From positions 1,952 through 65,951 of the forward strand of contig JBOHDX010000048.1 of NCBI GenBank assembly GCA_050700835.1: a stretch of 64,000 bases of DNA. Direction: 5' to 3'. The stretch comes from Nocardioidaceae bacterium. GTDB taxonomy: Bacteria > Actinomycetota > Actinomycetes > Propionibacteriales > Nocardioidaceae. The position numbers and the translations under genes are program-made. The notes under the pieces are model-generated. The model was given only the letters and a program-made list of their open reading frames with translations. It was not told where the DNA came from and ran no database searches. Every line of letters starts with the position of its first letter. Within the stretch, counting starts at the first letter, position 1. Shown piece by piece: positions 43,775 to 64,000 of the stretch.

Positions 43775-46700
43775 TCACTGGCCGGGGACGAGGACCACCG
43801 ACCACATCGTGGCCATCGCCGCGGCCGCGTTGGCGGTGGCCACCTGCCCGGCGTACGACGTGCCCGACACGGGGCCACCGGAGTCGGCCAGAAGGGACGA
43901 CACGTGACCGGACAGCGTGCCGAACCCGCTCGCCCGGTTGGTCACCGCTGGGGCGTTCCAGGTCGAGGTGCCGGCGTTCTTGTCCGCCCAGTAGGACACC
44001 ACCCAGTCGCCGGCAGCGACCGGCACTCCCGGTGTGGTGTGCGCGGCGCCCGAGGTCGTCTCAACCCGGTTCGCCGCCACGGGTGCCGCACCGTTGGTGC
44101 CGCTCCAGCCGGCGACGGTGAGCGTCACCTTCGCGGTGGCCGGCAGAGTGACGGTGACTTTCTTGCCGGCGTCGCCGGCCACGGCGGTACGGCTCCACAC
44201 GGTGGTGCCGAGGGTGCCGGCCGTGCTGGTGCCCAACGATGTCCAGCCGGTCGGCGCGGTGATCAGCTGTCCCGGTGACGCGGTGCTGAAGAACAGCAGC
44301 AGCGTGTCCCCGACACCGTCGGCCGCCGGGATCGTGACCGTGGGCTTGGTCGCACTTCCCGCGAACCTCGCGGCGCCCCGGAATGCGAGCACCGGTGCCG
44401 GCGCAGTCACCGTGACGTCGTGCGTCACGCTCGCCTGCGCTCCCTGGTCGTCAGTGACGGTCAAGGTCACTGGGTACGTCCCCGTGCCGGACCAGGTGTG
44501 GCTGGTCGTCGCGCCGGTGCCGGTGGCACCGTCGCCCAGGCTCCAGGCGTACGACACGACCGAGCCGTCGGGGTCGCTGGAACCGGAGCCGTCCAGCGTG
44601 CAGGCCAGGTCGGAGCACACGGCGCCGAACGCCGCGGTCGGTGGCTGGTTCGGCGGTGGCGTCGTCGCCCCGGCGGGGGCTAGCTCGATCGACCACATGG
44701 TCGCCATCCCCGTTGCTGCGTTGGCGGTTGCCGTCTGCTGGCCGTAGGTCGGCGTTGCCGCCGAGCCGGCCGAGTCGGCCAGCAGCGAGGACACGTGCCC
44801 AGCGAGGGTGCCGACGGCGCTGCTGCGCGCGACGACACTGCCGGGGGTGGTCCACGACGTCGTGCCGGCCCCCTTGTCGGCCCAATACGACACCACCCAG
44901 CTGTTCGGGACCGTGTGCACAAGCGGAGTCGTGTGGCTCGCCCTCGTCGTCGTGTCCGAGGCTGCCGCGAAGGTGGGCTGCACGGTGAGGCTGGTGCCGG
45001 TGTAGTCGGCGATGGTCAGAGTCACCTTCGCGCTGGTGGCCAGGATGACCGCGACCTTGCGTGACGCGTCACCCGCCTGCGCGATCCGCGTCCACACCGT
45101 CGTTGCCAAAGAGCCGGCGGTCTTGGTGCCCAGCAGGCTCCAGCCCGGCGGCGGTGTCGCGAGCTGCCCGGCCGATGCCGTGCTCAACACCAGCAACAGC
45201 TGGTCGCCGGCGCTGACGCCGGCCGGAGCCGTCACCGAAGGTTTGTTGGTGCTGCCGGCGTACGAGGCCGCACCGCGGTAGGCGACCCCGGACGCCATCG
45301 CCACGGTGAAGCTCTGTGTCGTCGACGACGAGACGCCCTGGTTGTCGGTGACGGTCAGCGTCACCAGATAGCTGCCCTGCGTCGCATAGGTGTGCGTCGT
45401 GGTTGCGCCGCTGGCGGTGCTGCCGTCGCCGAAGCTCCAGGAGTACGCCGCGATCGACCCGTCGGCGTCCTTCGAGGCGGATCCGTCGAACGAGCAGTCC
45501 AGACCGCTGCACACCCCGGTGAAGGATGCCGTGGGCGGCACGTCGACCGGGGGCTGGACGCTGACCTGGTGGGTGGTGCTGGTGCTGGCGCCGGAGTTGT
45601 CGGTGACGGTGAGCGTGACGGTGTGCGTGCCGGGCGTGGTGTAGGTGTACGACGGGGTCACGCCGGTGCCGGTCCCGCCATCGCCGAAGTCCCAGGAGTA
45701 CGACACGATCGTGCCGTCCTGGTCGGAAGCCGACGTCGCGTCGGAGGCGCAGCTCATGTTCGTGCACGTGGGCGCGAACGACGCGGTCGGCGGCAGGTTC
45801 GCGGTCGCCGACGACAGGAACAGGCCCTTGGCCCGCCAGTCCAGACCTCCGGTGGCCGGGCCGTTGACCACGACCGAGCTTCCGGACGGCCCACCGCCGA
45901 CGAGGGTGACTGCGTTCAGCGAACCGTCCGTGGACGAGGCGACGTACAACGTGGAGCCGGCGATGAACATGCCGTTGGCGCGAGACCAGTTGAAGCCACC
46001 CGTCAGCGTGTTGACGGCGGGGTTCATGATGCCGCTGTCCGGGCTGAACGCGACCCAGCTCAGAGTCGACGATCCGCTGCGCGTGAAGTAGAGCCGGCCG
46101 TTGGCGTAGGCCATCCCGGTGACGGTGCCGAGCTGGGAGTAGACCGTCGGCAGCGTGCCGGAGTACGTCTGGCCACTGCCGGTCTGGACGGTGGCCCAGT
46201 TCGGGTCGTGATAGGGGTCCACCTTGACCGCGGGTCCGAATGTCGTGCCGTCGAAGTCGCGGCGGTAGAGGTATCCGTCGGTGTAGCCGTAGTAGAGCCT
46301 CGTCCCGACCATGAACGCGCCACGCACCTGCGACCAGTCCAGGTCGCTGGTCGCGATCGCGCCGGCCACCGATGCCGTTGTGCCGCCGCTGCCGACGCTG
46401 ACCTGGGCGACCGAGGTGGACGGGGTGCTCGCACTACCGCCGAGGAACGCGGTGCCTGGCAGCGATCCGGTCGCGTTCGACACCACCGGTCGGCCCCCGG
46501 CGTACGGGAAGAACGCGATCCGGGGCCGCTTGTACTGGTAGTTGCCGACATAGCTGGTGTCCATGCCCATCCAGATGCCGGCGTTGGTGGGATAGAACTC
46601 CTTGGCCGACACTCCGCGCGGGTTGCGGCCAGGGTTCCAGTCCAGCGGTTCGCCGGTCTGCGGGTCGAGCGCGGACAGGCCGGGCCGCGGCACCGCGCCC

Positions 46701-47881
46701 TGGCCGGGGCTGTCGACGCCGAACTGGTTGTTCATCCAGCGGTTGTGGCCGCCGATGAACACCACCGAGTTGGTGATCGCCACACCCCAGACCGTGTCGC
46801 GACCGGTGTAGTCGACCCAGGTCGGCTGCAGGTTCGTGCCCGAGGCGTACGTCTCCCACCGTGCGGCCGAGTCGCACAGCGCGCCGGTCGAGCTGCCGCC
46901 GGTGGCGGTGACCACGAACCAGCTGCCGTCGGGCGAGAACGCCACCCCGCGTACGTCGCTGTCGTACGCCCAGTTGAAGCACAGCGGGCTGTAGCGGGTG
47001 GTGGCCCAGTCGGGTGTCACGGAGGCGGCGGTGGCGCCGAGGGTCACCATGACCAGCTGGTCGCGCGACAGCCCGTCGACGATCTTGAAGTTTCCGATCA
47101 CCGCGAGCCGGTCGTTCTGCGGGTTGACCACCATGTCCGTGGCGCCGATACCGCCTTGCGCACCGCTGCCGGCGTTGTTGTGGTGCACCGACATCTGCAG
47201 GTTCACGTACGGGTCGAGCAGCCCTGTCGAGGCGTCGATGCTGGCGATGCCGACGTGGGCGGCCCCACCCACGGTGGTGAAGTAGCCGCCAAGGAACAGG
47301 TGGCTCCCCGACTGCGCCAGCGTCTGCACCGACCCGTTGCTGACGGCTGCGCGGAAGCTGCTCACGACCGCCCCGGTGGTCGCGTCCAGCACCACCACGT
47401 GGCTGGCTGTTGTCCCGTTGACGGTGGTGAAGGCGCCACCGACATAGATCGTGTTGGGGGTCGGGCCTGGGAGCAGGGCGTTGACGACGCCGTTGAAGAC
47501 CGGGTCGAAGGTCGTACTGATGGCTCCGGTCGTCGCGTCGAACGCGAACAACCCGGTCCGGGAGTACGTGGGGGTGCCGCCGCGGGCGGCGACGGTGGTG
47601 AAGTTGCCGCCGGCGATGAGCATGTTGCCGACCTGCACGATCTGCTGCACGCTCCCGTCCTGCACCCAGGGGGTGAACGCGGCGGGCACCGCGCTGGGCA
47701 GCCCCGGGGTGGAGGTGAAGCCCGCGGCAGGGGTCGCGCTTGTCGCGACGTGGGCCGCGGTGGCTCGATCCGCGGAGTGGGCGGCGTCAGCGGAGGTGGC
47801 CGCGACGGCGGCGGGCATGAGCCCCACCCCGGCCGCCACCGACGTGACCACGCAGACGAGCGCAAAAAGACAACGGCGCAT
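43775..47881 (-). CDS. giant secreted protein P1: signal peptide + beta-propeller-like region + PKD x2 + unknown module X + PKD + X
   Basis: The track ORF is 43775..47923; ATG 47881 gives the signal peptide MRRCLFALVCVVTSVAAG...AVAA, with GGGAG upstream. Repeated 'GGNFTTV...FAFDATTGA' blades are followed by three 'YSWDFGDG...TVTLTVTD' PKD-like units and two roughly 205-aa 'GD.LLL...VSYWADK...SLLADS...ATMWS' modules. Confidence 0.8.
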   Translation of the reverse strand: MRRCLFALVCVVTSVAAGVGLMPAAVAATSADAAHSADRATAAHVATSATPAAGFTSTPGLPSAVPAAFTPWVQDGSVQQIVQVGNMLIAGGNFTTVAARGGTPTYSRTGLFAFDATTGAISTTFDPVFNGVVNALLPGPTPNTIYVGGAFTTVNGTTASHVVVLDATTGAVVSSFRAAVSNGSVQTLAQSGSHLFLGGYFTTVGGAAHVGIASIDASTGLLDPYVNLQMSVHHNNAGSGAQGGIGATDMVVNPQNDRLAVIGNFKIVDGLSRDQLVMVTLGATAASVTPDWATTRYSPLCFNWAYDSDVRGVAFSPDGSWFVVTATGGSSTGALCDSAARWETYASGTNLQPTWVDYTGRDTVWGVAITNSVVFIGGHNRWMNNQFGVDSPGQGAVPRPGLSALDPQTGEPLDWNPGRNPRGVSAKEFYPTNAGIWMGMDTSYVGNYQYKRPRIAFFPYAGGRPVVSNATGSLPGTAFLGGSASTPSTSVAQVSVGSGGTTASVAGAIATSDLDWSQVRGAFMVGTRLYYGYTDGYLYRRDFDGTTFGPAVKVDPYHDPNWATVQTGSGQTYSGTLPTVYSQLGTVTGMAYANGRLYFTRSGSSTLSWVAFSPDSGIMNPAVNTLTGGFNWSRANGMFIAGSTLYVASSTDGSLNAVTLVGGGPSGSSVVVNGPATGGLDWRAKGLFLSSATANLPPTASFAPTCTNMSCASDATSASDQDGTIVSYSWDFGDGGTGTGVTPSYTYTTPGTHTVTLTVTDNSGASTSTTHQVSVQPPVDVPPTASFTGVCSGLDCSFDGSASKDADGSIAAYSWSFGDGSTASGATTTHTYATQGSYLVTLTVTDNQGVSSSTTQSFTVAMASGVAYRGAASYAGSTNKPSVTAPAGVSAGDQLLLVLSTASAGQLATPPPGWSLLGTKTAGSLATTVWTRIAQAGDASRKVAVILATSAKVTLTIADYTGTSLTVQPTFAAASDTTTRASHTTPLVHTVPNSWVVSYWADKGAGTTSWTTPGSVVARSSAVGTLAGHVSSLLADSAGSAATPTYGQQTATANAATGMATMWSIELAPAGATTPPPNQPPTAAFGAVCSDLACTLDGSGSSDPDGSVVSYAWSLGDGATGTGATTSHTWSGTGTYPVTLTVTDDQGAQASVTHDVTVTAPAPVLAFRGAARFAGSATKPTVTIPAADGVGDTLLLFFSTASPGQLITAPTGWTSLGTSTAGTLGTTVWSRTAVAGDAGKKVTVTLPATAKVTLTVAGWSGTNGAAPVAANRVETTSGAAHTTPGVPVAAGDWVVSYWADKNAGTSTWNAPAVTNRASGFGTLSGHVSSLLADSGGPVSGTSYAGQVATANAAAAMATMWSVVLVPGQ

Positions 47882-47931
47882 GAGGATGGCTCCCGAGAAA
47901 GGGGACGGTTGTCCCACGACCATTCAGTCCG

Positions 47932-48991: not shown

Positions 48992-51904
48992 TCAGGGAGT
49001 GGGGGCCGGCCGCAGGCCGAGCACCAGCGTGATCGTGCTGTTCAGGGCACCGGCCCGGGTGGCCTCCCGGGCGGGATAGGTCTCCGCCGGAACGACGGCT
49101 CCACTGTCGGCGAGCAGGCTGGTGATGTTGCCGCCACCGGACCCGATGGACGACTCTCGCTGCGCCACCTCGCTGGGGGGCAACCAGGCGGTCGACGACG
49201 ATGACTTGCCGGCCCAGTAGGTGAGGACCCAACCGTCGGCGTCGACGCCGAGCCTCGCGGTGCGAGCGTTCGTGGTGGCCACCGTGTCGCTGGACCACGC
49301 CATCGGCGTCAACGGGTTCCCTTGGTTGACCCCGCTGTACGTTGCCACGTCCAGGGTGGACTTCGCGGTGGTCCCCGCCAGTCCCACCGTGATGGCGCTG
49401 CCGGGTGTGTCGTTGGAGGTCGCCGGCTTGTACCAGACCGACGACTCCATGGCGGGGGTCGACTTGGTCCCGGCCAACGACCACCCGGTCACGGTCGGCT
49501 GTGGGGTCGCGACGCCGCTCGAGACGACGAGCACCATCGTGTCTCCCGGCGTCGTCCCCGCCGGCACGGTGACGGTGGCGCTCGGGAACCGGGGACTCGT
49601 CGACGCGGTCGCAGACGTGGAGCCCACGAAGCCGATGATGCTGGACGCCAGCGGGGAGACCTTCTGGTCGCTGGTCACGCTGGCGCGGTCGTCGTCAGTG
49701 ACGGTGAGCCGGACCGTGTACGTCCCGCTGTCGGCATAGCCGTGGACGACGTGCGCCCCGGTGGCCGCTGCCGTCCCGTCCCCGAAGTCCCAGCGGTACG
49801 AGGTGATGATGCCGTCGGGATCGTGTGAGGCGCCCGCGTCGAAGGAGCACTGTGCGCCGGCACAGTCGGCGGTGAACGACGCGACCGGCGGGCGGTTGGT
49901 CCCAGGGGCCGCGCCCGCGAACAGCACCATCCCTCGGGCCGCCCAGCGCATCGGGACACCGCCCGTCCGCACGACTGTCGCCCGTCCTAGCGTGCGCCCG
50001 GCGTGGAAGGCGACCCGGTGCAGCACCCCTGCCCTGGTGGAGAAGTAGAGCCAGCGGCCGCTGATGAACGACCCGGCGACGTTGCGCCAGTTGACCGCGC
50101 TTGGCACCGCCGTGCCGATGGCCGCCATGACCCCGCTGTCGACCGAGAAGGCTCGTTCGTACAAGCGGCAACTGCGCGCCATCGTGTAGTAGAGCCGGCC
50201 GCGGTTGTAGCTCAGGCTCGTCAGCTGCGGGATCTGGCGGTAGAACATCGGATACCTACCGGCATAGGTCTGTCCGGAGCCGGTCTGCACGTTGTCCCAC
50301 GCCGGATCGTGGTACGGGTCGACGAGTCGGGCCCCACCAAGCACCGACCCGTAGAACGGGCGTTGGTACAGCCGTCCGTTGGTCCACCCGTAGTAGAGCG
50401 TCTTGTCGACCATGAACGCACCGCGGACCCCGCTCCAGTCCATCCCGGCGAACGCCCGCGGAGCACGGTCGAACCGCACGCGTGAGCCGTTGAACCGCAC
50501 CTGCTGCACCTGACCGCCACGAGTGGCGCCGAGCAGGTAGACGTCGTCCGGCAGCGCGCCGGTATAGCCACGTGGCAGCGTCGAGCCGCCGGGCGCCGGC
50601 AGCAGGGCAAGCCGCGGGCGAAGGTACCGGCGGTTCCCGATCCACTGGGTGTCGCTGCCAACCCACAGACCATCCCGGGTCAGCAGCAGTGCCGCGGTGC
50701 CGTAGCCGCGAGGATTGCGACCCGGGTTCCAGGTCAGAGGGAGCCCGGTGCCTGGGTCGAGCGCCGCCAGCCCCGGGCGCGGCACCGCACCGGCGCCCGC
50801 CACGTTGGCGCCCTCGGGGTTGTTCAGCCAGCGCTGGTGGCCGCCGACGTACACCGCCGATCCGCTGATCGCCACCGACAGCAACGTGTCCTGGCCGGTG
50901 GGCGCCACCCAGGTGGGCAGCAGCCGGGTGCCGACGGCGCGGGTCTCCCACCGGCTGGCGGAGTCGCACAGGCCGTGGATGCTACCGCCGCTGGTGGTCA
51001 CCACGAAGTAGCGGCCGTTGGGTGCGAACGCGACCTGCCGGACGTACGCATCGAACCGCTTCGGCAGGCACAGTCGCGTGAACGAGCCGGTCGCCCAGCT
51101 GCGGGTCACGCCGATTCGCCGGCCCAAGGTGATCATGGCCAGCTGCGGCCGGGGAAGTCCGTCCGCACGCATGAAGTTGCCGTCCACCACCAGCCGGCTG
51201 CCGTCCGGGGACACGTCGAGCGACCGAGCGCCGACTCCCGCCGACGTGCCCCTCCGGGCCTGCCCGTGGTAGCCGGACAGCTGCACCTGCATCGCCCGCA
51301 CCAGCGTCCCGCTGACGGAGCGCAACGCCGCGATCCCGCGGTGCCAGCGCCCGTCGACCTGGGTGAACACTCCACCGATGTACAGCCGTCCCCGGTGCAC
51401 CGCCATCGTGTTGACTGCGCCGTTGATCCGTGGCGCGGCGAACCCCCGCACCCCGCGCCCGGTCGCCAGCGACAGCCGCAGCACGCTTCCGCGGTTCCTG
51501 TGGGGGCGGCGCCCGAACGACTCCGCCACCAGGACCGACCGGCCGTCCGGGCCGGGTTGCACGGCGCTGACGGTGCCGGTCAGCCGAGGTGCGAAGCCGG
51601 TCAGCAGCTGTCCTGTGCTGCGGTCGAAGGCGGCGATGTGCAGCCGGCTCAGCGGCACGCTGCTGCCCGGGTTCGCGACCTGGGTGAAGGTGCCGGCGAT
51701 CACGATGGTCCGCCCGATCGCGGTGATCGCGTCAACCCGGCCGTCCAGCACTGCGGGCGTCCTGGCGCTCGGCAACGCCGAGACCGTGCGCCTGGGGGCG
51801 ACCGCGGCCGCCGTCGACGTCGGCAACACCGCGCCTCCCAGCACCGCGCAGCTCAGCACCGCGCAGGCCGAAGCCAGCACTGTGGTGAGGGGTCGACGAT
51901 GCAC
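48992..51904 (-). CDS. giant secreted protein P2: signal peptide + propeller-like region + PKD x1 + module X
   Basis: 970-aa ORF with a GTG start 5 nt after GGGGAG and the signal peptide MHRRPLTTVLASACAVLSCAVLGG. It is a more divergent paralog of P1, P3 and P4: 'RWETRAVGT', 'GAVPRPGLAALDPGTGLPLTWNPGRNPRG', a PKD unit 'YRWDFGDGT...TVRLTVTDD', and module X 'LTYWAGK...SLLADS'. Confidence 0.8.
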   Translation of the reverse strand: MHRRPLTTVLASACAVLSCAVLGGAVLPTSTAAAVAPRRTVSALPSARTPAVLDGRVDAITAIGRTIVIAGTFTQVANPGSSVPLSRLHIAAFDRSTGQLLTGFAPRLTGTVSAVQPGPDGRSVLVAESFGRRPHRNRGSVLRLSLATGRGVRGFAAPRINGAVNTMAVHRGRLYIGGVFTQVDGRWHRGIAALRSVSGTLVRAMQVQLSGYHGQARRGTSAGVGARSLDVSPDGSRLVVDGNFMRADGLPRPQLAMITLGRRIGVTRSWATGSFTRLCLPKRFDAYVRQVAFAPNGRYFVVTTSGGSIHGLCDSASRWETRAVGTRLLPTWVAPTGQDTLLSVAISGSAVYVGGHQRWLNNPEGANVAGAGAVPRPGLAALDPGTGLPLTWNPGRNPRGYGTAALLLTRDGLWVGSDTQWIGNRRYLRPRLALLPAPGGSTLPRGYTGALPDDVYLLGATRGGQVQQVRFNGSRVRFDRAPRAFAGMDWSGVRGAFMVDKTLYYGWTNGRLYQRPFYGSVLGGARLVDPYHDPAWDNVQTGSGQTYAGRYPMFYRQIPQLTSLSYNRGRLYYTMARSCRLYERAFSVDSGVMAAIGTAVPSAVNWRNVAGSFISGRWLYFSTRAGVLHRVAFHAGRTLGRATVVRTGGVPMRWAARGMVLFAGAAPGTNRPPVASFTADCAGAQCSFDAGASHDPDGIITSYRWDFGDGTAAATGAHVVHGYADSGTYTVRLTVTDDDRASVTSDQKVSPLASSIIGFVGSTSATASTSPRFPSATVTVPAGTTPGDTMVLVVSSGVATPQPTVTGWSLAGTKSTPAMESSVWYKPATSNDTPGSAITVGLAGTTAKSTLDVATYSGVNQGNPLTPMAWSSDTVATTNARTARLGVDADGWVLTYWAGKSSSSTAWLPPSEVAQRESSIGSGGGNITSLLADSGAVVPAETYPAREATRAGALNSTITLVLGLRPAPTP

Positions 51905-53588: not shown

Positions 53589-56500
53589 TCAGTCGGCCGG
53601 CAGTACGACCGACCACATCGTGGCCATCCGCGCCGCGGCGTCGGCCGTCGCGGTCAGCCCACCACGCGTACCCGCCGAGACCGGCCCACCGGAGTCGGCC
53701 AGCAACGACGCCACCCGACCGGTCTTGACCCCGACCGACTGCGCCCGCCGAACAAGACCCGCTGGCAGCGTCCACGACGTCGTGGTTGAGGACTTGTCGG
53801 CCCAGTACGACACCACCCACGCACCGCTACCGGCCGCGACGGTCGGCGTGGTGTGCGCCGCGGACGACGCGGCGTCCTGGGCCGTGGCGAAGCTCGGGGT
53901 GGCGCTGGTGCCGCGGTAGGCCGCGACCGAGAGCGTCACCTTCGACCGACCGCCGAGCCGCACCTTCACCAGCGCGCCGGCCTCCCCGGTGGCGGCCATC
54001 CGGGTCCACATCGTGGTGCCCAGCGTCCTGGCCGTGTTCGAGCCCAGCCGGCTCCACCCGGCCGGCGGCGTGGCGCTGCGCGCTGGGCTGTTGGTGCTGA
54101 GCACCAGCAGCAGGCGGTCACCGGCCGCCACCCCGGCCGGGATCCGCACACCGGGAGCGGTGGTGTTGCCGGCGACCGAGTCCGCGCCCACGAACCGGAC
54201 CGCACCCTGACCCGGCTGCACCGCCGTCACCGAGTGCGACACCGTGCTGGTGCCGCCCTTGTCGTCGGTCACCGTGAGGCTGACCGTGTAGGCGTTCGGC
54301 GTCGAGTAGGTGTGCGACGGCGTCGCCCCCGCACCGGTGCTGTTGTCGCCGAAGCTCCAGGCGTACGCCGTGATCGACCCGTCGGGATCGTGGGACGCGG
54401 TTGCGTCGAGTCCACAGGTCATCCCGGTGCACGACGGGCTGAAGGCCGCGACCGGGGCTTGGTTCCCGGCGGGACCGCCACTGGGCGGGGCGACCGTGAC
54501 CGTCTTCGTCGCGGTGCCGGTCGCGCCCTTGTCGTCGGTGACGGTCAGCGTCACCGGGTACGTACCGGCGCGCACGTAGGTGTGCGGCGGGTTCGCAGCG
54601 GTGGACGTGGCGCCGTCACCGAACGCCCACTTGAACCGCCTGACGATCCCGTCGGGGTCGTGGGACCCCGACCCGTTGAACGCGCAGGCAAGCCCGCTGC
54701 ACGACGATCCGATCACCGCGCTCGGCGGTTGGTTGGCGGTCCCGGCGAGCCGAAGCGTCCAGCTGGTGGTGTTGGTCAACCCCTGTGCGTCGGCGACGGT
54801 CATCGTCACGGTGAAGAAGGCACCGGCCGCGCCGTAGTTGTGCGACGTGGTCCTGCCGGTGCCACGGGTCCCGTCGCCGAAGTACCACGTGTAGGACACG
54901 ATCCCACCGTCGTCGGTGGAGCTGGACGCGTCGAAGCTGCAGGTGGTGGCGGTGCAGGTGGGGACGAACTGCGCGACCGGCGGCTGGTTCTGGGGGGAGA
55001 ACAAGAACAGCCCGGGCGTCGCCCAGTTAAACGCGGAGTTGACCTTCGACGACGACCCGAGGGGCGCGCCGCCCGCGCTCATCGGCACGGCGTTCAAGGA
55101 GCCGTCCGTCGACGACCCGACGTACAGCGTGGACCCGCTGAAGAACATGCCACGGGCGTGGCTCCAGCTGAAGCCGCCGGAGTAGTTGGTGGCGATCGGG
55201 TTCACGATCCCGCTGTCCGGCGTGAACAGCACCGAGTGCAGCTGTGCGTTGCCGTTCAGCGTGTAGTACAGCCGGCCGTTGCTGTACGCCATCCCGCTGA
55301 CCGAGCCGGACCGGAACGAGTCGTACAACGGCGGCGAGACGCCGACGTAGGTCTGGCCGCTGCCGGTCTGCACGTTGCTCCAGACCGGATCGTGGTACGG
55401 GTCGATCTTGACCGCCGGGCCGAAGGCCGTGCCGTTGAACGTCCGCTTGTACAAGAACCCGTCGGTGTAGCCGTAGAACAAGGTGGCGCCGACCAGGGTC
55501 GCGCCGCGCACCTTGGTCCAGTCGAACCCGGGCGTGGACAGGCTGCCGGCGGCCGTGGCGATCGAACCGGACCCGCTCAGCGACACCATCGGGACGGCGT
55601 TCGCGCCGCCGGAGCCGCCGAGCAGAACCCTGCCGGGCAGAGTGCTCACAGTGGTCGGCGCGACGGGCCGGCCCCCGGTGTAGGGGAAGAACACCAACCG
55701 CGGGTGGTGGTACCGGTGGTTTCCAACCCAGTCGGTGTCCATCCCCATCCAGATCCCCTGGTTGGTGGGCAGGAACACCTTCGCCGACACTCCGCGCGGG
55801 TTGCGTCCGGGGTTCCAGTCCAACGGCTCGCCGCTGACCGGATCGAGCGCCGACAGGCCAGGTCGCGGTACCGCGCCGGCTCGGGCGTTGTCGGTGCCGT
55901 TGGGGTTGTTCATCCACCGGTTGTGCCCCCCGACGTAGACCACGTCGTCGGTGACCGCCACGCCCCACACCGTGTCCCGGCCGGTGAGGTCGACCCACGT
56001 CGGGTCCAGGCTGGTGCCGGTGGCGTAGGTCTCCCAGCGGGCCGCCGCGTCGCACAGCGCCCCCGGCTGGCTGCCGCCGGTCGCGGTCACCACGAAGAAC
56101 GTCCCGTCGGGCGAGAACGCCACGCCGCGCACGTCACTGTCGTACGCTCGCGCGATGCAGGTCGGGCTGTAGCGGTTGGTCGCCCAGTTCGACGTCACCG
56201 ACGCCGAAGTGGCGCCGAGGGTGATCATCACCAGCTGGTCGCGAAGCATCCCGTTCGCGGTCTTGAAGTTGCCGATCACCACCAGCCGGTCGCCCTGGGC
56301 GTTGATGTCCATCTCGTTGCCGCCGATCGCGCCACGCGCACCGCCGGGGACGGTGTTGTGGTGGCCGTCGAGCTGGACGCCCATGTAGGGGTCCAGCGCG
56401 CCGGTGGTCGCGTTCATGGTGGCCAGGCCCGAGTGGGCGACCCCGCCGACGGTGCGGAAGTTGCCGCCGACGAACAGCCGGTTTCCCAGCCGCGCCAGCG

Positions 56501-57032
56501 TCTGTACGACGCCGTTCGTCGCGGCCGCGCGGAACGACGTCACGACCGCGCCGGTGGTGACGTCGAGCAGCACCAGGTGGCTCTGGTTGGTGCCGTTGAC
56601 GGTGGTGAAGCTGCCGCCGACGTACACGGTTCCCGCGATCGGACCCGCCAGCAGGTGGTTGACGTTGCCGTTCAGCACCGGGTTGAACGTGGTGACGATC
56701 GCACCGGTGGCCGCGTCGAAGGCAAAGACCGCGGTCCGCGAGTACGTCGGGGAGCCGCCGGCGGCCGCGACCGAGGAGAAGTTGCCCCCGGCCACCATGA
56801 TCTGGCCGACCCGTGCGTACGCCTGCACGCTGCCGTCCCTGGCCCACGGGGTGTATGCCGCCGGGACCGGGCTGGGCAACCCTGATCTGGCCGTCCAGCT
56901 GATCTGCGGCGTCGGCCCGTCCGCGGTGCCGGCGGCAGTGGCCGCCGGCGTCGCGGTCGCCGTCGCGAGGAGCCCAGGGACGACCACGAGGGCGGTGGTG
57001 AACGACAGGAGGCTGATCAGGAAACGTCGCAC
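53589..57032 (-). CDS. giant secreted protein P3: signal peptide + propeller-like region + PKD x3 + module X
   Basis: 1147-aa ORF with a GTG start 6 nt after GGAG and the signal peptide MRRFLISLLSFTTALVVVPGLLATATA. It has the same blade and 'RWMNNP', 'DPYHDP' motifs as P1 and P4, three PKD-like units and one C-terminal module X. Confidence 0.8.
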   Translation of the reverse strand: MRRFLISLLSFTTALVVVPGLLATATATPAATAAGTADGPTPQISWTARSGLPSPVPAAYTPWARDGSVQAYARVGQIMVAGGNFSSVAAAGGSPTYSRTAVFAFDAATGAIVTTFNPVLNGNVNHLLAGPIAGTVYVGGSFTTVNGTNQSHLVLLDVTTGAVVTSFRAAATNGVVQTLARLGNRLFVGGNFRTVGGVAHSGLATMNATTGALDPYMGVQLDGHHNTVPGGARGAIGGNEMDINAQGDRLVVIGNFKTANGMLRDQLVMITLGATSASVTSNWATNRYSPTCIARAYDSDVRGVAFSPDGTFFVVTATGGSQPGALCDAAARWETYATGTSLDPTWVDLTGRDTVWGVAVTDDVVYVGGHNRWMNNPNGTDNARAGAVPRPGLSALDPVSGEPLDWNPGRNPRGVSAKVFLPTNQGIWMGMDTDWVGNHRYHHPRLVFFPYTGGRPVAPTTVSTLPGRVLLGGSGGANAVPMVSLSGSGSIATAAGSLSTPGFDWTKVRGATLVGATLFYGYTDGFLYKRTFNGTAFGPAVKIDPYHDPVWSNVQTGSGQTYVGVSPPLYDSFRSGSVSGMAYSNGRLYYTLNGNAQLHSVLFTPDSGIVNPIATNYSGGFSWSHARGMFFSGSTLYVGSSTDGSLNAVPMSAGGAPLGSSSKVNSAFNWATPGLFLFSPQNQPPVAQFVPTCTATTCSFDASSSTDDGGIVSYTWYFGDGTRGTGRTTSHNYGAAGAFFTVTMTVADAQGLTNTTSWTLRLAGTANQPPSAVIGSSCSGLACAFNGSGSHDPDGIVRRFKWAFGDGATSTAANPPHTYVRAGTYPVTLTVTDDKGATGTATKTVTVAPPSGGPAGNQAPVAAFSPSCTGMTCGLDATASHDPDGSITAYAWSFGDNSTGAGATPSHTYSTPNAYTVSLTVTDDKGGTSTVSHSVTAVQPGQGAVRFVGADSVAGNTTAPGVRIPAGVAAGDRLLLVLSTNSPARSATPPAGWSRLGSNTARTLGTTMWTRMAATGEAGALVKVRLGGRSKVTLSVAAYRGTSATPSFATAQDAASSAAHTTPTVAAGSGAWVVSYWADKSSTTTSWTLPAGLVRRAQSVGVKTGRVASLLADSGGPVSAGTRGGLTATADAAARMATMWSVVLPAD

Positions 57033-57206: not shown

Positions 57207-60200
57207 TCAGGTTCCGGCTGGCACCACGATCGACCACATCGTCGCCATCGTGGCCGGTGTGTTGGTGGTGGCGGTGACGCCGGCGCGGGTTCCGGCGCTG
57301 ACCGGGCCGTTCGTGTCGGCGAGCAGCGAGGTGACGCGCCCGGACAGCGTGCCGTAGTTCTGCTGGCGCGAGGTGACCGTCCCCGGTGGCGTCCACTTCG
57401 TCGTGGTGCCGGACTTGTCCGCCCAGTAGGACACGACCCATGCCTTGTCGGGCGCGGAGATGCTGGGCGTGGTGTGGGACGCCTTCGAGGTGGTGTCCTG
57501 GGCGACCGTGAACGTCGGCTGCGTCGTGGTGCTGGCCCCGGTGTAGTCGACGACGGTCAGCGTGGCCTTCGCGCTGCCGCTGAACGCCACCTTGACCTTG
57601 GACCCCGCGTCACCGCTCACCGCTGTCTTGGTCCACACGGTCGTGGCCAGCGTGTTCGCGGTGTTCGTGCCGAGCTTGGTCCAGCCCGCCGGTGGGGTGT
57701 TCGTCCGGGCCGGGCTGTTGGTGCTAAGCACCAGCAGCAGCCGGTCGTTGACCGCGACGCCGCTCGGCACCGTCACGGTCGCCGCCTTGGCGTTGACCGC
57801 GACCCCTGCGGCACCGACGAACGCGACCTGGCCCGGCGTCGGCACGGTCACCGTCACCGTGTGGCCCGTCGGAGTGCTCTGGGCGCCCCCGTTGTCGGTC
57901 ACGGTCAGGGTCACCGTGTAACCGCCCGAGCCGGAGTAGGGGTGCGACGTCCCGGTCGTGGTATCTGTTTCGACCGGCGTGCCGTCGCCGAAGTCCCAGT
58001 CGTACCGCACGACGGTGCCGTCAGTGTCCTTCGAGCCGGAGCCGTCGAACGTGCAGGTCGCGCCCGCGCAACTGGACGTGAACGCCGCCGTCGGCGGCTG
58101 GTTGGCCGGTGGGGTACCACCGTCCGGGATCAGCAGGATCGACCACTCGGTGGCCATGCCGAGACTGATGCTCGACGTCGCGGTCAGGCCCCCGGCCGTC
58201 GAAGCCAGCGCCGACCCGTTGGAGTCGGCCAGAAGCGACGACACCTGGCCCGCCTGCGTGCCGGACGCCTGGGTGCGGGGCGCCGTCGTACCGGGCGCCG
58301 TCCACGTCGTGGCCGGTGACGTAGACGAACCGCCCTTGCCCGCCCAGTAGGACACCAGCCACGACCCGGTGCTCGTCGAGATCGTCGGCGTGGTGCGTTG
58401 GGTGCCGGACGCGAGGTCGCCGTTCGAGACGAACGTGGGAGTGTTTCCGCCGGCGTCGTGGTAGTCGGCCACCGTGAGCGTGGACTTCACGCCGGTCCGG
58501 GACAGTGTCACCGAGACGGGGTTGCCGCCCTCGGACCCGCCCGCGACCTCGGTCCACACGGTCGTCGCCATCGTCTTGGAGACCTGGCTGCCGAGCAGGC
58601 TCCATCCGGTCGGAGCGGTGGCGGTGACGGTGCTGTCGTTGACGGTCGAGATCAGTAGCAGCCGGTCCCCGGCGATGATCGACGTGGGCGCCGTGACCGT
58701 GGGCTTGAGCTGCGTCTGCGCGACCGAGGTCGCGTCGCCGAAGGACACTCCCGTGCCCTGCGAGCCGACGTTGATCACCTTCGACGTGCTCCCGGTCGCT
58801 CCCCCGTCGCTGTCAGTCACCGTAAGCGTGACGGTGTACTGACCGGCGCTGGGGAAGGCGTGTTGCAGGGTCGCCCCTGATGCCGCCGAGGTCTGGTCAC
58901 CGAAGTCCCACGAGTACGACGTGATCGTGCCGCCGTCCGGATCGCTAGACGCGGACCCGTCGAAACTGCAAGTCAAGCCGGTGCAGCCGGTCACGGTGAA
59001 CGACGCCGTCGGCGGCTGGTTGGGCGGCGTGGTCACCGACACCTGCTGGGTGTTGGTGGCCGAGCGCCCCTTGTTGTCCGTCACGGTCAGCGTCACGGTG
59101 AAGGGGCTGCCGGTGGCCGGGAAGATGTGCGACGTCTTGGGCGAGGTGTCAGTCTCGCTGTTCCCGTCGCCGAAGTTCCACTGGTACGACGTGATCGTGC
59201 CGGTGGGGTCGCTCGACGACGACGCGTCGAAGCTGCAGTTCGTCCCACCCGGCGGGCAGTTGAACACGAACGACGCGTTCGGCGGCTCGTTCTGACCGGC
59301 CGAGGACAGGAACAGTCCCTTGGCCCGCCAGTCGACCGTGCTGTTGACCACGGTCGAGGTGCCGGTGGGCGCGCCGTTGCTGCCGAGGGCGACGACGTTG
59401 AGCGAGCCGGTCAGCGCCGACGCGACGTACAACGTGGAGCCGCTGACGAACATCCCCTGTGCGTTCTTCCAGGCGAAGCCGCCGGTGGTGTAGTTGTTCG
59501 GCTTCGGGCTGACGATCCCGCTGTCCGGGGAGAACGCGACCGAGTGCAGTGACGAGTCATTGCTGACCGTGTAGTAGAGCAGCCCGTTGGCGTACGCCAT
59601 CCCGGTGACCGTGCCGCTCTTGAACAGGCTGTACAGCGGCGGCGACACGCCGACGTAGGTCTGGCCGCTGCCGGTGTTGACGTTGCTCCAGTACGGGTCG
59701 TGGTACGGGTCGATCTTCACGGCCGCTCCGAACGTGCTGCCGTCGAAGCTGCGCTCGTACAGGAAGCCGTCGGTGTAGCCGTAGAACAGGTGGCCCCCGA
59801 CCATCACCGCACCGCGCACCTGTGACCAGTCGATCCCCGTCCCGCTCAGCGTGCCCGGCGTGCCGCTGTTGCCGGCAGCGTCGAGCGACACGTTCGAGAT
59901 GCTGCCGGTGCTGTCGCCGGAGTGGCCGCCGAGAAACACCTGGCTAGGCAGCGAGCCGGTGAAGTTGGTGGCCACGGGGCGTCCGCCATTGAGCGGGAAG
60001 AAGGCCAGTTTGGGTGTGTGGTACTGGAAGTTGCCGACGTAGTCGGTGTCCATCCCCATCCAGATGCCGGTGTCGGTGGGCAGGAACACCTTCGCCGAGA
60101 CGCCCCGCGGGTTGCGGCCCGGGTTCCAAGCCAGCGGCTCGCCGGTCAGCGGGTCCAGCGCCGACAGGCCCGGTCGAGGCACCGCACCGGCCGCCGCGCT

Positions 60201-61355
60201 GTCGGTGCCGGACGGGTTGTTCATCCACCGGTTGTGGCCGCCGATGAAGACCACGTCGTTGGTGATCGCGACTCCCCACAGGGTGTCCTTGCCGGTGAAG
60301 TCGACCCAGGTCGGGCTCAGACTGGTCCCGGACGCGTACGTCTCCCATCTGGCCGCCGAGTCGCACAGCGTGTTGTTGCCGTAGCCGCCGGTGGCGGCGA
60401 CCACGAAGAACTGGCCGTTGGGGGAGAAGTCGATCCCACGGATATATTGGTCATATCCGGAGCTGCAGTTCGGGTTGTACGCGGAGGTTCCCCAGTCCGG
60501 GGTCACCGACGCCGAGGTGGGGCCGAGAGTGATCATCGCCAGCTGGTGATGCAGGCTCCCGTCCGCGCTGGTGAAGTTGCCGATCACCGCAAGCCGGTCG
60601 CCAGGGGAGTTGATCGACATCTCGAACACGCCCTGCGCCGCCTGGGTGCCGACGCCGCCGCGCTGGTCGCCGGTCATCTGCACGCCCATGTAGGGGTCGA
60701 GCGCACCGGTGCTCGCGTCCAGCGTGGCCAACCCGGCATGCGCGATACCGCCAACGGTCTTGAAGTTGCCGCCCACGAACAGCCGGTTGCCGCTGAGCTG
60801 GATCGTCTGCACCGCGCCGTTCGTCGTGGCCGCCTTGAAGCTGCTGACGATCGCGCCGGTGTTCACATCCAGCAGGACGACGTGGGAGGCGGGCGTGCCG
60901 TTGACGTTGGTGAACGTGCCGGCCGCAAACACGGTGCCGGGGACGGGACCGGCCAGCAGGTGGTTCACCACCCCGTTGAGGACCGGAGCGAACGTCGTGC
61001 TCACCTGGTTGGTGGAGGTGTCGAACGCGAAGATCGAGTTCCGGGTGAAGACGGTTCCCCCGCCCTTGTTGGTCACCGACGTGAAGTTGCCACCGGCCAC
61101 CATGGTGGTCCCGACCTGGGCAAAGCTCTGCACGCTGCCGTTCTGCACCCACGGCGTCGAGGTGGAGGGCACGGCGCTGGGCAGCCCGGACCAAGTGGCG
61201 TGCGGCAACGGCGTGCTGGGTGCTGCTGACGCGCCGACCTTCCCCCCGGCGCCGGCGACGACGCCGGGCGCCGCACTCGCCGCCGGTGCGATCAGCAGGG
61301 TGGTGGCGACCACCGAGGAGGCGAGCGAGAGGAGGGTGATCAGCAAGCGTCGCAC
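57207..61355 (-). CDS. giant secreted protein P4: signal peptide + propeller-like region + PKD x2 + X + PKD + X
   Basis: 1382-aa ORF with a GTG start 6 nt after GGGGAG and the signal peptide MRRLLITLLSLASSVVATTLLIAPAASA. Its architecture is collinear with P1. Confidence 0.8.
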   Translation of the reverse strand: MRRLLITLLSLASSVVATTLLIAPAASAAPGVVAGAGGKVGASAAPSTPLPHATWSGLPSAVPSTSTPWVQNGSVQSFAQVGTTMVAGGNFTSVTNKGGGTVFTRNSIFAFDTSTNQVSTTFAPVLNGVVNHLLAGPVPGTVFAAGTFTNVNGTPASHVVLLDVNTGAIVSSFKAATTNGAVQTIQLSGNRLFVGGNFKTVGGIAHAGLATLDASTGALDPYMGVQMTGDQRGGVGTQAAQGVFEMSINSPGDRLAVIGNFTSADGSLHHQLAMITLGPTSASVTPDWGTSAYNPNCSSGYDQYIRGIDFSPNGQFFVVAATGGYGNNTLCDSAARWETYASGTSLSPTWVDFTGKDTLWGVAITNDVVFIGGHNRWMNNPSGTDSAAAGAVPRPGLSALDPLTGEPLAWNPGRNPRGVSAKVFLPTDTGIWMGMDTDYVGNFQYHTPKLAFFPLNGGRPVATNFTGSLPSQVFLGGHSGDSTGSISNVSLDAAGNSGTPGTLSGTGIDWSQVRGAVMVGGHLFYGYTDGFLYERSFDGSTFGAAVKIDPYHDPYWSNVNTGSGQTYVGVSPPLYSLFKSGTVTGMAYANGLLYYTVSNDSSLHSVAFSPDSGIVSPKPNNYTTGGFAWKNAQGMFVSGSTLYVASALTGSLNVVALGSNGAPTGTSTVVNSTVDWRAKGLFLSSAGQNEPPNASFVFNCPPGGTNCSFDASSSSDPTGTITSYQWNFGDGNSETDTSPKTSHIFPATGSPFTVTLTVTDNKGRSATNTQQVSVTTPPNQPPTASFTVTGCTGLTCSFDGSASSDPDGGTITSYSWDFGDQTSAASGATLQHAFPSAGQYTVTLTVTDSDGGATGSTSKVINVGSQGTGVSFGDATSVAQTQLKPTVTAPTSIIAGDRLLLISTVNDSTVTATAPTGWSLLGSQVSKTMATTVWTEVAGGSEGGNPVSVTLSRTGVKSTLTVADYHDAGGNTPTFVSNGDLASGTQRTTPTISTSTGSWLVSYWAGKGGSSTSPATTWTAPGTTAPRTQASGTQAGQVSSLLADSNGSALASTAGGLTATSSISLGMATEWSILLIPDGGTPPANQPPTAAFTSSCAGATCTFDGSGSKDTDGTVVRYDWDFGDGTPVETDTTTGTSHPYSGSGGYTVTLTVTDNGGAQSTPTGHTVTVTVPTPGQVAFVGAAGVAVNAKAATVTVPSGVAVNDRLLLVLSTNSPARTNTPPAGWTKLGTNTANTLATTVWTKTAVSGDAGSKVKVAFSGSAKATLTVVDYTGASTTTQPTFTVAQDTTSKASHTTPSISAPDKAWVVSYWADKSGTTTKWTPPGTVTSRQQNYGTLSGRVTSLLADTNGPVSAGTRAGVTATTNTPATMATMWSIVVPAGT

Positions 61356-61514: not shown

Positions 61515-62360
61515 TCAGCCGGCGACTTTTTCGCTGTTTCGCGTCTGCCGTGGCAGGGCGACGTCGGCCCGATGCGCCGGCTCACGCCCGATCAGGACCC
61601 GGCCGACCGCCATCATCACCAGCAGCAGCACCACGCCGTAGGCCAGGCCGCCGACCACGTCGGTGACCCAGTGCTTGAGTAGGTACGTCCGGGTGTACGC
61701 CTCGATCGCGGCCAGGAACGCCACCACCGTCCAGGCGAGGATGCGCAGCCGTCGCGTCATGCCCGGCACCGCGACGATCAAGCAGAACGCGTAGAGCCCG
61801 TAGATGAGGAGCAGCCGACCGCAGCCGCCGGACGGCCAAGTGCCGAGCGTGGTGGGCGGGTGACCGCGGTGCACCAGCGTCTTCAACGCGGCCTGGGAGT
61901 ACTTCTCGGTGAGGTAGCCGAACAGGAACAGGATCGGCGGGACGTACCGATGCCGGCGCCATGCGACCGCGAACACGATCGCGCCGATCACCGCAAGCAC
62001 CTGCGTGGGGGTCGAGTTGCCCATCTGGGTGAGCAGGTTGTTCGCGTGCTGCCAGAACCCGCCCACCTGCCGGTGCTCGAAGAAGTGGAACACCGGGACG
62101 TCGACCGGGCCCTGCAGCGCGTGGGCTCCGACACCGAGCAACCAGAACACCGAGCCCACGAGGCCCACCCCGGCGAACCAGGTCAGGGCCGCCGCCGGCC
62201 ATTGGCCGATCTGATCCTGCAGCCCGAGCCGGACATCGTCGAAGCGGGTGTGCGCCATGGCCAGCCGACCGCCCGAAACCGCGGGCCGAAAAGCGAGGAA
62301 ACCACCGATCACGAGGGTGATCAACGGCACCACGATGCCGATCGCAACCGCTACGAACAT
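61515..62360 (-). CDS. PAP2-superfamily membrane phosphatase
   Basis: 281-aa multi-pass ORF. The PAP2 motifs are 'KTLVHRGHPP' (KxxxxxxRP-like), 'PSGGCG' (PSGH-like) and 'TRTYLLKHWVTDV' (SRxxxxxHxxxD-like). Confidence 0.75.
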   Translation of the reverse strand: MFVAVAIGIVVPLITLVIGGFLAFRPAVSGGRLAMAHTRFDDVRLGLQDQIGQWPAAALTWFAGVGLVGSVFWLLGVGAHALQGPVDVPVFHFFEHRQVGGFWQHANNLLTQMGNSTPTQVLAVIGAIVFAVAWRRHRYVPPILFLFGYLTEKYSQAALKTLVHRGHPPTTLGTWPSGGCGRLLLIYGLYAFCLIVAVPGMTRRLRILAWTVVAFLAAIEAYTRTYLLKHWVTDVVGGLAYGVVLLLVMMAVGRVLIGREPAHRADVALPRQTRNSEKVAG

Positions 62361-62506
62361 CCGAGAGCTCCCTCACTGGTCGACATCGGTCAGGATGGCA
62401 TATCGCCGAAACCGTTCGGTGGCTTTGCCGAACTCACAGTATTTCCTTGCCCAGACCGTCATCATCGAGAACCGGCACCAGTGACCAGACCAGGAGTGCT
62501 CCCCCC

Positions 62507-63427
62507 ATGAGTGTGCGGACCGACCAGGGCGTCTCCGTCGTCATCGCCACCCGCAGCCGGCCGCAGCTGCTGGCCAAGGCGGTCGAGGCGTGCCTGAGCC
62601 AGGAGCACGCCGGGCCGATCGAGGTCGTCGCCGTCTTCGACCAGTCCGAGCCGCGCAGCGAGCTGTGCCGCGACGACGCCGACCGCCAGGTCCGGGTCAC
62701 CTCGAACCACCGCACCCCAGGACTGCCCGGCGCCCGCAACACGGGCATCCTGGCCGCCACCCACGACCTCGTCGCGTTCTGCGACGACGACGACCTGTGG
62801 CTGCCGGGCAAGCTCGGGCGCCAGGTCGCCGCCATCCGGGAGAGCGGCACGCGGGCCGCGGTGACCGGTATCCAGGTCCGTTATGGCGAACGGCTCCGGC
62901 TGCGACCGCTGGCACCTGCGCCGCTACGACTGGCGGACCTGGTTAGGGACCGGGTGACGTCGGCGCATCCTTCGACGTACCTCGCCGATCGCGGCTTCCT
63001 GATTGAAAACGATCTGCTGGTGGACGAGAAGATCCCCGGAGGGTACGCCGAGGACTACGACTGGCTGCTGCGGGTGGCTGCGCACACCGACGTCGCGGTG
63101 GTGCCGGAGCCGATGGTCGAGGTGCTGTGGCATCCGGGTTCGTTCTTCACCAACCGTTGGACGACGATCGTCGAAGCGCTGGACTACCTCGTGGACAAGC
63201 ACCCCTACATCCGTGACGACCGGGCCGGGCTGGCCCGTATCCGCGGCCAGCAGGCATTCGCCCTGGCCGGTCTCGGTCGCCGGCGGGAGTCGTGGCGCAA
63301 GCTCACCGAGACGGCCCGACACAACCCGCGGGAGCGCCGCATCCTCGCGACCCTTCCAGTGCTGGCCGGGGTGGTGTCCGGCGAGCGGGTGATGCGCACC
63401 GCGAACCATTTCGGCCGCGGCATCTGA
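62507..63427 (+). CDS. family 2 glycosyltransferase
   Basis: This is the in-frame part of ORF 62447..63427, starting at MSVRTDQGVSVVIATRSRP. 'VSVVIATRSRPQLL', 'GLPGARNTG' and 'VAFCDDDDLWLPGKL' (DxD) are present. Confidence 0.85.
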   Translation: MSVRTDQGVSVVIATRSRPQLLAKAVEACLSQEHAGPIEVVAVFDQSEPRSELCRDDADRQVRVTSNHRTPGLPGARNTGILAATHDLVAFCDDDDLWLPGKLGRQVAAIRESGTRAAVTGIQVRYGERLRLRPLAPAPLRLADLVRDRVTSAHPSTYLADRGFLIENDLLVDEKIPGGYAEDYDWLLRVAAHTDVAVVPEPMVEVLWHPGSFFTNRWTTIVEALDYLVDKHPYIRDDRAGLARIRGQQAFALAGLGRRRESWRKLTETARHNPRERRILATLPVLAGVVSGERVMRTANHFGRGI

Positions 63428-63451: not shown

Positions 63452-64000
63452 TCAGCGGTAGCCGCGGCGCCGGCGCAGGCCGGCGGTCAACACTCCCACC
63501 GCGCGCCGCGCACCCACCGGCATCTTCGCGCGCCAGTCCTCATCGGGGCGCAGCACGATCTCACCGTGCTCGAACCGCATCGGGTTGCCGGCGATCTGAT
63601 GTGCCGGACGCAGCGTGACCCGGTCGTCCCTGATGTGCGCCAGCGCGGCGTCGTCCGGATCCAGACCGGCGAACCGGAGGATCGAGGACACGGAGCCGCG
63701 CGGGTCCGCGACGAAGTCCTCGTAGCGCACCGTCGTGACCGGCGTGCCGCGTCGCGCCAGCAGCCGGACCAACAGGTCGAACGCGCTCCACCACACGGCT
63801 GTCTCCGTCGGGCGGTACTGCGGCATGTCGGCGCTGCCGTCCACGACCTCGGGCCGGCGCACCTGCTTCGACCACGAGTAGGCCACGCCCCGTGGGTCGC
63901 GTACCAGATAGACACAGCGCAGGTCGACGTCGGCGTGGCGCAGCAGCGCGGCGTACGCGGGCATCTTGGAGGAGTCGACGACCAGGCGCGCACCATCACC
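63452..64000 (-). CDS. sulfotransferase-family protein (N-terminus outside window)
   Basis: ORF 63452..63964 stays open in frame to the window edge ('...VVDSSKMPAYAALL'). 'YLVRDPRGVAYSW' and 'VRYEDFVADP' fit PAPS-dependent sulfotransferases. Confidence 0.7.
   Translation of the reverse strand, partial: GDGARLVVDSSKMPAYAALLRHADVDLRCVYLVRDPRGVAYSWSKQVRRPEVVDGSADMPQYRPTETAVWWSAFDLLVRLLARRGTPVTTVRYEDFVADPRGSVSSILRFAGLDPDDAALAHIRDDRVTLRPAHQIAGNPMRFEHGEIVLRPDEDWRAKMPVGARRAVGVLTAGLRRRRGYR

Follow-up and report, generated by a model that had tools for sequence, protein, structure and literature searches.

The stretch analyzed here is a 64-kb window (G+C content of about 70%) of contig JBOHDX010000048.1 from a Nocardioidaceae bacterium. 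It contains four large open reading frames (ORFs) on the minus strand, which are arranged head to tail and are referred to as P1 to P4 in the following. The encoded paralogs are 42-59% identical to one another and share the same plan, namely a signal-peptide-like N-terminus (judged by eye), a double beta-propeller, PKD units and a module of about 205 amino acids (aa), here called X, which is the main subject of this analysis. With this length X is roughly 2.5 times as long as a PKD unit (80-85 aa). The PKD and X architectures of the four proteins were assigned by matches to the PKD models of Pfam combined with a mapping of the module boundaries by motifs. In coordinates of the window, the features are as follows:

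57207..61355, minus strand: P4, 1382 aa; signal peptide, double beta-propeller, PKD, PKD, X, PKD, X (ORF and translation)
61269-61355, minus strand: P4 signal peptide (judged by eye), upstream of the propeller
59286..61193, minus strand: P4 N-terminal double beta-propeller, approx. aa 55-690 (AlphaFold2 (AF2), Foldseek and homologs)
58761..59282, minus strand: P4 PKD units 1 and 2, approx. aa 692-776 and 781-865 (Pfam, motifs)
58125..58751, minus strand: X copy P4a, aa 869-1077 (alignment, profile scan)
57840..58097, minus strand: P4 PKD unit 3, approx. aa 1087-1172, directly upstream of X copy P4b (Pfam PKD_4/PKD/K319L-like; motif boundaries)
57210..57830, minus strand: X copy P4b, aa 1176-1382, reaching the P4 stop codon (alignment, profile scan, AF2 model)
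53589..57032, minus strand: P3, 1147 aa; propeller, three PKD units, X (ORF, Pfam)
54213..54983, minus strand: three PKD units of P3, approx. aa 684-765, 769-850 and 859-940 (Pfam, motifs)
53592..54203, minus strand: X copy P3, aa 944-1147 (alignment, profile scan)
48992..51904, minus strand: P2, 970 aa; propeller, PKD, X; the most divergent paralog (ORF, Pfam)
49649..49891, minus strand: P2 PKD unit, approx. aa 672-752 (Pfam, motifs)
48995..49639, minus strand: X copy P2, aa 756-970 (alignment, profile scan)
43775..47923, minus strand: P1, 1382 aa as listed; propeller, PKD, PKD, X, PKD, X (ORF, Pfam)
45296..45793, minus strand: P1 PKD units 1 and 2, approx. aa 711-792 and 796-876 (Pfam, motifs)
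44675..45289, minus strand: X copy P1a, aa 879-1083 (alignment, profile scan)
44402..44644, minus strand: P1 PKD unit 3, approx. aa 1094-1174 (Pfam, motifs)
43778..44392, minus strand: X copy P1b, aa 1178-1382, ending P1 (alignment, profile scan)

An original prediction, made from the letters of this DNA, had described X as a module of about 205 aa present six times in the four paralogs. Translation, alignment and profile scan confirmed the six copies and their positions: they translate to segments of 204-215 aa that align end to end, with 32-60% identity to copy P4b and pairwise identities of 36-60%. The motif skeleton quoted at that time was likewise found in the translated copies (GD.LLL, P.GW, HTTP, SYWADK, SLLADS, and MATMW), except that the P2 copy, which is the most divergent one (36-39% identity to the others), lacks HTTP and MATMW. 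A six-frame scan of the whole window with an X profile returned exactly six copies and no seventh, a result that is circular for the six copies themselves, as all of them are part of the profile. For the matches of the same profile to independent Actinomycetota proteins, however, the domain E-values range from about 1e-44 to 1e-80, and X is therefore far beyond chance. Across 205 X domains, the residues D29, K88, Y96, R155, D172, W50, and W136 (P4b numbering) are 91-98% conserved.

Searches of Pfam-A and NCBIfam with the six copies and 24 family members yielded only scattered matches below threshold, to a different family for each sequence and with a best E-value of 0.008. DUF5512, DUF5627, DHBP synthase, and the pullulanase C-terminal domain, which each appeared in one sequence below threshold, were consequently rejected as the identity of X. 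The PKD models PF18911 and PF00801 match the units preceding each X and have no match inside X, and Malectin, LamG and the carbohydrate-binding families of Pfam do not match X either. For comparison with PDB sequences, a profile of 24 sequences was trimmed to X alone (alignment A3), an earlier PDB profile search having carried PKD columns; it returned nothing at E<=10. The AF2 model of copy P4b (m085fb7c93844; 32-sequence alignment) is all-beta with about 16 strands and very confident (pLDDT 97.3, pTM 0.93). Foldseek with this model against 350,542 PDB chains gave no significant match, the best E-value being 0.02 (TM 0.30), with TM scores of at most 0.32 and probabilities of at most 0.44; the weak top matches were viral double jelly rolls, a GH172 enzyme, a difructose dianhydride synthase/hydrolase, and cupins. 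The suggestion that X lies outside any known domain family thus held against Pfam-A, NCBIfam, PDB sequences, and a Foldseek search of PDB, and the structural check by AlphaFold and Foldseek, proposed along with it, ended in a confident all-beta model that no solved structure matched. Models of PADLOC had no match to P1-P4 at E<=0.01, and a reading of the four proteins as a defence system, which finds no support from PADLOC, was dropped.

Relatives of X were found both with the module itself and with the carrier. A word-index search with copy P4b yielded 44 metagenomic relatives, mostly fragments, at 35-54% identity. When 8000 candidates were scored in a search with the N-terminal 690 residues of P4, 787 of them proved to be homologs at E<=0.001, and those that bear a name all belong to the Actinomycetota (Nocardioides, Nostocoides, Mumia, Phycicoccus, Geodermatophilaceae, and Streptosporangiales). 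Within the best 120 of these 787 propeller homologs, 94 carry X at or near the C-terminus, and the only label of the X-bearing homologs is "PKD domain-containing protein". In some of them X occurs together with Malectin, which is then located upstream of X. Among 80 genome loci, recovered mostly via their PKD units, X was present in actinobacterial ones only, including Marmoricola, Serinicoccus, Paeniglutamicibacter, and Acidimicrobiia. A search of 1.84 billion representatives was performed with an alignment that included PKD columns (A2); its results are dominated by giant PKD proteins and provide no census of X, which was present in 29 of the 150 proteins listed.

The arrangement of X in these homologs is considerably more varied than in the window. 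Some homologs contain two or three copies per protein, in part as direct X-X tandems with linkers of 5-13 aa (P0053, P0060, P0062, and P0090), and X follows the propeller straight away, without a PKD unit, in P0102, P0132, and P0148. Further carriers show the orders sulfatase-PKD-X-PKD-X-FG-GAP (P0283), phosphoesterase followed by three PKD units and X (L013), and RCC1 propeller-PKD-X (L014), and in one protein an N-terminal X precedes a GH26 domain (L002:8150-9949). X is located away from the C-terminus in P0283, P0292, and L012, and near the N-terminus in some PKD-rich proteins. On the plus strand of the ENA contig L088 a signal peptide is directly followed by X and then by PKD and propeller-like pieces, an order from which it follows that X can be the first domain after a signal peptide. 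The minus strand of the same contig (positions 1-12846) holds one broken propeller-PKD-X-PKD-X gene. A candidate for a stand-alone X from this contig, P0018, was rejected, as the contig is rich in frameshifts and P0018 covers only the N-terminal portion of a longer gene that is broken.

In the light of these architectures, two rules derived from the six copies apply to the window only: each X directly follows a PKD unit (via a short linker) and the terminal copy ends the protein in P1-P4, whereas in the family X also follows another X or the propeller and is not always C-terminal. The idea that PKD-X forms an obligatory functional unit is not supported in view of the X-X tandems, the propeller-X proteins, and the X-GH26 protein. 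Because of the tandems and the carriers lacking PKD, it is X and not PKD-X that constitutes the autonomous module, and X represents an uncatalogued domain family of the Actinomycetota.

Structural relatives of X were detected among viruses. A Foldseek search against BFVD, a collection of predicted viral structures, gave 84 matches at E<1e-3, with E-values down to 1e-12; the best ones have a probability of 1.00, TM scores of 0.75-0.84, and 11-24% identity over the whole module of about 205 aa. They include minor tail proteins of the Mycobacterium phages Hawkeye, Shauna1, Gaia, Tweety, Phabba, MooMoo, and PP, a Microbacterium phage tail glycerophosphodiester phosphodiesterase, protein D0U204 (gp20) of Clavibacter phage CMP1, and proteins of Rhizobium, Sinorhizobium, and Synechococcus phages. 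The X fold is shared over its entire length by two groups: in actinophage minor tail proteins (PHROG 553/2106) it forms the C-terminal domain, in CMP1 gp20 the N-terminal one. At the level of predicted models, the fold relationship between X and phage tail proteins is solid. Like X, the phage domains are attached to other modules, including phosphodiesterases, and some of the tail proteins with this fold are fusions with enzymes that degrade wall polymers; the phage domains differ in being parts of virions, whereas X is found on secreted cellular proteins.

For CMP1 gp20, whose presence in the virion was confirmed by mass spectrometry, the relationship extends in part to the sequence. The alignment of its sequence with the X profile by hhalign reached a probability of 88% (E-value 3e-6; X columns 11-75), and the motifs vP..V..GD.lL and P.GWt are common to both. 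A word-index search with the N-terminal domain of gp20 returned no relatives. The rest of gp20 matches a phosphodiesterase PHROG, the homolog from CN1A is annotated as phosphodiesterase, and the gp20 gene is located between the genes of an SGNH-hydrolase structural protein and a phosphodiesterase-like protein. In the virion/tail region of CMP1 (L082, 14336-19817) the SGNH hydrolase gp19, gp20, and the UgpQ-like phosphodiesterase gp21 are thus adjacent; the three resemble equipment for the degradation of envelope polymers, with the X-like domain at the N-terminus of gp20.

The mycobacteriophage type is more distant. Tweety gp21 (A5YJY9), which is assigned to PHROG 2106 and 553, matches X in Foldseek with an E-value of 1.4e-6 and a TM score of 0.68, and other minor tail proteins reach TM scores of 0.73-0.77. 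In sequence searches, PHROG 553 was matched at an E-value of 1e-4 by one of the 24 X sequences and by none of the six window copies. An hhalign comparison of X (A3) with a six-sequence alignment of the Tweety gp21 family was collinear over 150 columns but, at a probability of 4.5%, not significant, and a comparison with Tweety gp21 alone was not significant either. Common ancestry is accordingly probable for X and the CMP1-type domain and unproven for X and the mycobacteriophage type. Tweety gp21 has been described only as a member of a very large and complex family of minor tail proteins (PMC2884959), and the literature on mycobacteriophage tails gives no function for the gp21-type domain. 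Neither tblastn of X against 50,697 phage genomes nor a scan of IMG/VR viral contigs for the SYWADK pattern yielded a match, so that close X sequences are not phage-borne.

The four genes are flanked on one side by mfd, mazG, eno, and ppx, and beyond P4 by the following genes, all assigned by Pfam:

61515-62360, minus strand: PAP2 phosphatase
62447-63427, plus strand: GT2 glycosyltransferase
63452-63964, minus strand: sulfotransferase

In three other Actinomycetota, namely Serinicoccus (L007), Paeniglutamicibacter (L008), and a metagenome-assembled genome of the Acidimicrobiaceae (L002), genes homologous to the propeller-PKD-X genes of the window have homologs of the GT2 glycosyltransferase and/or the sulfotransferase (38-48% identity) at a distance of a few kb. 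The PAP2/GT2/sulfotransferase flank is a possible functional context of X, located outside of X itself, and the recurrence of the GT2 and sulfotransferase neighbors, together with the fusion of X to a sulfatase in P0283, is a hint at a link between X and a sulfated glycan.

Taking these observations together, we consider the chances about even that X is a module that binds a ligand, probably a glycan or a cell-envelope polymer, and has no catalytic activity. Binding is suggested by the portability of X between unrelated secreted carriers, its tandem repetition and its usually terminal position, and further by the co-occurrence with Malectin, the fold shared with phage tails, and the GT2/sulfotransferase neighbors. 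It is also suggested by the combination of signal-peptide-like N-termini, as judged by eye, with the lack of a covalent anchor: neither a sortase motif nor a membrane anchor was seen after X in the translations of P1-P4. Carbohydrate-binding modules are typically found fused to secreted hydrolases of unrelated kinds and repeated in tandem; repeated catalytic domains are uncommon. In such a scenario the PKD units would be spacers by which a secreted protein presents one to three X copies at its distal end, the carrier being the double beta-propeller in the window and a sulfatase, a GH26 enzyme, a phosphoesterase, or an RCC1 propeller elsewhere. We infer that tandem copies would raise the avidity of binding, as we infer the nature of the ligand. 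This ligand may be a polymer of the envelope of the producing cell or a polysaccharide from the environment.

A parallel for such a function might be seen in the baseplate of mycobacteriophage Douge, whose exposed beta-sandwich domains bind fragments of lipoarabinomannan/arabinomannan and alpha-glucan and decorate host cells (PMC13033339), although this comparison is an analogy only. The domain in question, domain II of BppU in the phages Douge and Claus, is a beta domain of about 195 aa on a baseplate protein of about 310 aa, it binds mycobacterial arabinomannan and alpha-glucan, and the BppU domain of Claus resembles a carbohydrate-binding module (PMC13033339; PMC13252515). An identity of X with the glycan-binding BppU domain of Douge was rejected, as neither the fold nor the profile matched (an hhalign comparison of X with residues 116-311 of Douge gp23 gave a probability of 0.7%), and for this reason BppU of Douge is to be regarded as a functional and positional analog and not as a relative.

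Several observations weigh against a role of X in glycan binding. No lectin or carbohydrate-binding module was among the Foldseek matches of X to solved structures, and Douge gp23 (8zdo), although part of the searched PDB chains, was absent from the top 50 matches. With a probability of 4.5% in hhalign, homology between X and the PHROG 553 family falls short of significance, and the phage relatives are called minor tail proteins by position only (PMC2884959). Finally, the uniform conservation of D29, K88, Y96, R155, D172, W50, and W136 would be less expected of a binding site with variable specificity than of a catalytic or metal site, and these residues could equally mark such a site.

Three other explanations were weighed. 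In the first one, X is a classical carbohydrate-binding module directed at environmental polysaccharides and used for nutrient acquisition, and its resemblance to phage proteins reflects a shared ancient fold. This is a sub-case of the binding function proposed above, which differs in the ligand alone, and we regard it as rather unlikely. The fusions to GH26, a mannanase family, and to a sulfatase, and the presence of X on propellers containing Malectin, are in line with it, as is the fact that the recovered homologs are largely metagenomic or from metagenome-assembled genomes. Yet the propeller carriers of the window have no recognizable catalytic domain, the linkage to GT2/sulfotransferase genes of biosynthesis is recurrent, and cellular X was found in Actinomycetota only (in this sample), while modules for plant or algal polymers usually cross phyla.

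Alternatively, X might be a module for protein-protein interaction or oligomerization, or a structural cap, with no specificity for a small ligand; it would then bring the propeller proteins together in a surface layer or a complex, comparable to the distal domains of phage tails in baseplate rings. The fold relatives of X are indeed structural proteins of virions, X is usually the terminal domain, its conserved residues could form an interface, and four adjacent paralogs could form hetero-complexes. However, unrelated carriers in different lineages fit generic targeting or binding better than a specific assembly partner, oligomerization needs no tandem copies within one chain, no coiled coil or trimerization signal is present, and the AF2 model of the monomer reaches full confidence without a partner. 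We consider this explanation improbable.

Least probable in our view is a catalytic role, with X as a small beta-sandwich enzyme (for instance a lyase or hydrolase of polysaccharides) whose substrate is a polymer of the envelope or of the environment, in which the near-invariant Asp, Lys, Tyr, and Arg form the active site and whose phage counterpart acts as a depolymerase. The near-invariant polar residues plus W50 and W136 in 205 copies, a size and an all-beta fold similar to those of glycoside hydrolases and lyases of the jelly-roll type, the weak PDB matches to jelly rolls including GH172 and the difructose dianhydride synthase/hydrolase, and phage relatives including PHROG 382 ("minor tail protein with lysin activity") and PHROG 13624 ("hydrolase"; weak match from three of the 24 X sequences) would fit an enzyme, but these PDB matches are not significant, the match to PHROG 382 is limited to the C-terminal third and thus not necessarily to the lysin part, no enzyme family of Pfam or NCBIfam matches, and the occurrence in tandem and on carriers that are already catalytic (sulfatase, GH26, and phosphoesterase) is the pattern of a binding module.

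The proposed glycan-binding function can be extended to a more far-reaching picture, which we consider doubtful: X might be a new family at the fold level, with no experimentally solved member, that is common to, and perhaps exchanged between, Actinomycetota and their phages, serving as a non-covalent anchor to envelope glycans in cells and as a receptor-binding head in phages. Cellular X would then attach propeller proteins and enzymes to a lineage-specific, possibly sulfated glycan made by the neighboring GT2 glycosyltransferase and sulfotransferase. Even more speculatively, the four secreted paralogs might occupy a receptor glycan and thereby reduce the adsorption of phages.

Among known systems, the clostridial collagenases ColG and ColH follow the same logic as P1-P4, with a functional head, PKD spacers, and tandem C-terminal beta-sandwich binding modules, and the PKD domains of ColH are a strong sequence match to the PKD units of P1-P4. 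The head of ColG and ColH is a peptidase, whereas that of P1-P4 is a double propeller, and the collagen-binding domains (roughly 115 aa) gave no sequence match to X in the PDB search, X being about twice their size. In its accessory position and behavior X also resembles carbohydrate-binding modules and lectin-like beta-sandwiches such as Malectin, LamG, and domain II of BppU. It is an undescribed domain family of a familiar kind, an accessory beta-sandwich module, with hundreds of actinobacterial members.

A definition of the family would improve the annotation of hundreds of secreted actinobacterial proteins that are labeled just "PKD domain-containing protein" and in which X makes up about a fifth to a third of each chain. 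If binding is shown, X could represent a new family of carbohydrate-binding or wall-anchoring modules, and should the ligand turn out to be a polymer of the actinobacterial envelope, X could find use as a probe or targeting module. Defining the family would, moreover, open a cellular approach to a fold that recurs among phage tail proteins with no assigned role, including those of therapeutically used mycobacteriophages. Being soluble, 205 aa long, and modeled with very high confidence, X lends itself readily to structure determination and to tests on glycan arrays.

The N-terminal part of the paralogs, a double beta-propeller of about 640 aa, is itself an unannotated family. AF2 modeled the N-terminal 690 residues of P4 as tandem beta-propellers (pLDDT 85.5). 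Foldseek of this model against PDB returned only generic tandem-propeller proteins, including the periplasmic domain of the heparin-sensing BT4663, and for that reason the fold search gives no functional clue. There was no PDB sequence match, and the Pfam scan gave no catalytic signature and only matches below threshold (Rax2 and DUF5122). An alignment of 21 propeller sequences contains about 70 invariant positions, including the block GAVPRPG...WNPGRNPRG.

With regard to the origin of the six X copies, the closest similarity of PKD units is that between equivalent positions in P1 and P4 (55-60%), which implies that the PKD-X-PKD-X tail is older than the duplication that gave rise to the P1 and P4 genes. 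Duplication of whole genes in which this tail was already present accordingly accounts for most of the six copies. The two X copies of P1 are 58% identical to each other and only 48% and 52% identical to their counterparts in P4; since they are closer to each other than to these counterparts, partial homogenization within the P1 gene is suggested.

P3 is 99.9% identical over all 1147 residues to P0045, a "PKD domain-containing protein [Nocardioidaceae bacterium]" from a metagenome-assembled genome, and this public annotation of its NCBI counterpart overlooks both the propeller and X. The gap between P2 and P3 (51905-53588) contains a plus-strand ORF (52118-53560) without a Pfam match. Only its C-terminal part of about 270 aa resembles a real beta-propeller protein, the N-terminal part being rich in Arg and apparently out of frame, and an ORF in another frame (52167-52751) has a GC3 of 0.87. 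The gap ORF is probably a frameshifted gene or an assembly error. In P1, the listed ATG adds 14 aa (MVVGQPSPFSGAIL) ahead of a typical signal peptide starting with MRRCLF. The alignment of P1 to P3 and P4 begins at residue 15, and the internal Met at aa 15 is probably the true start of P1.

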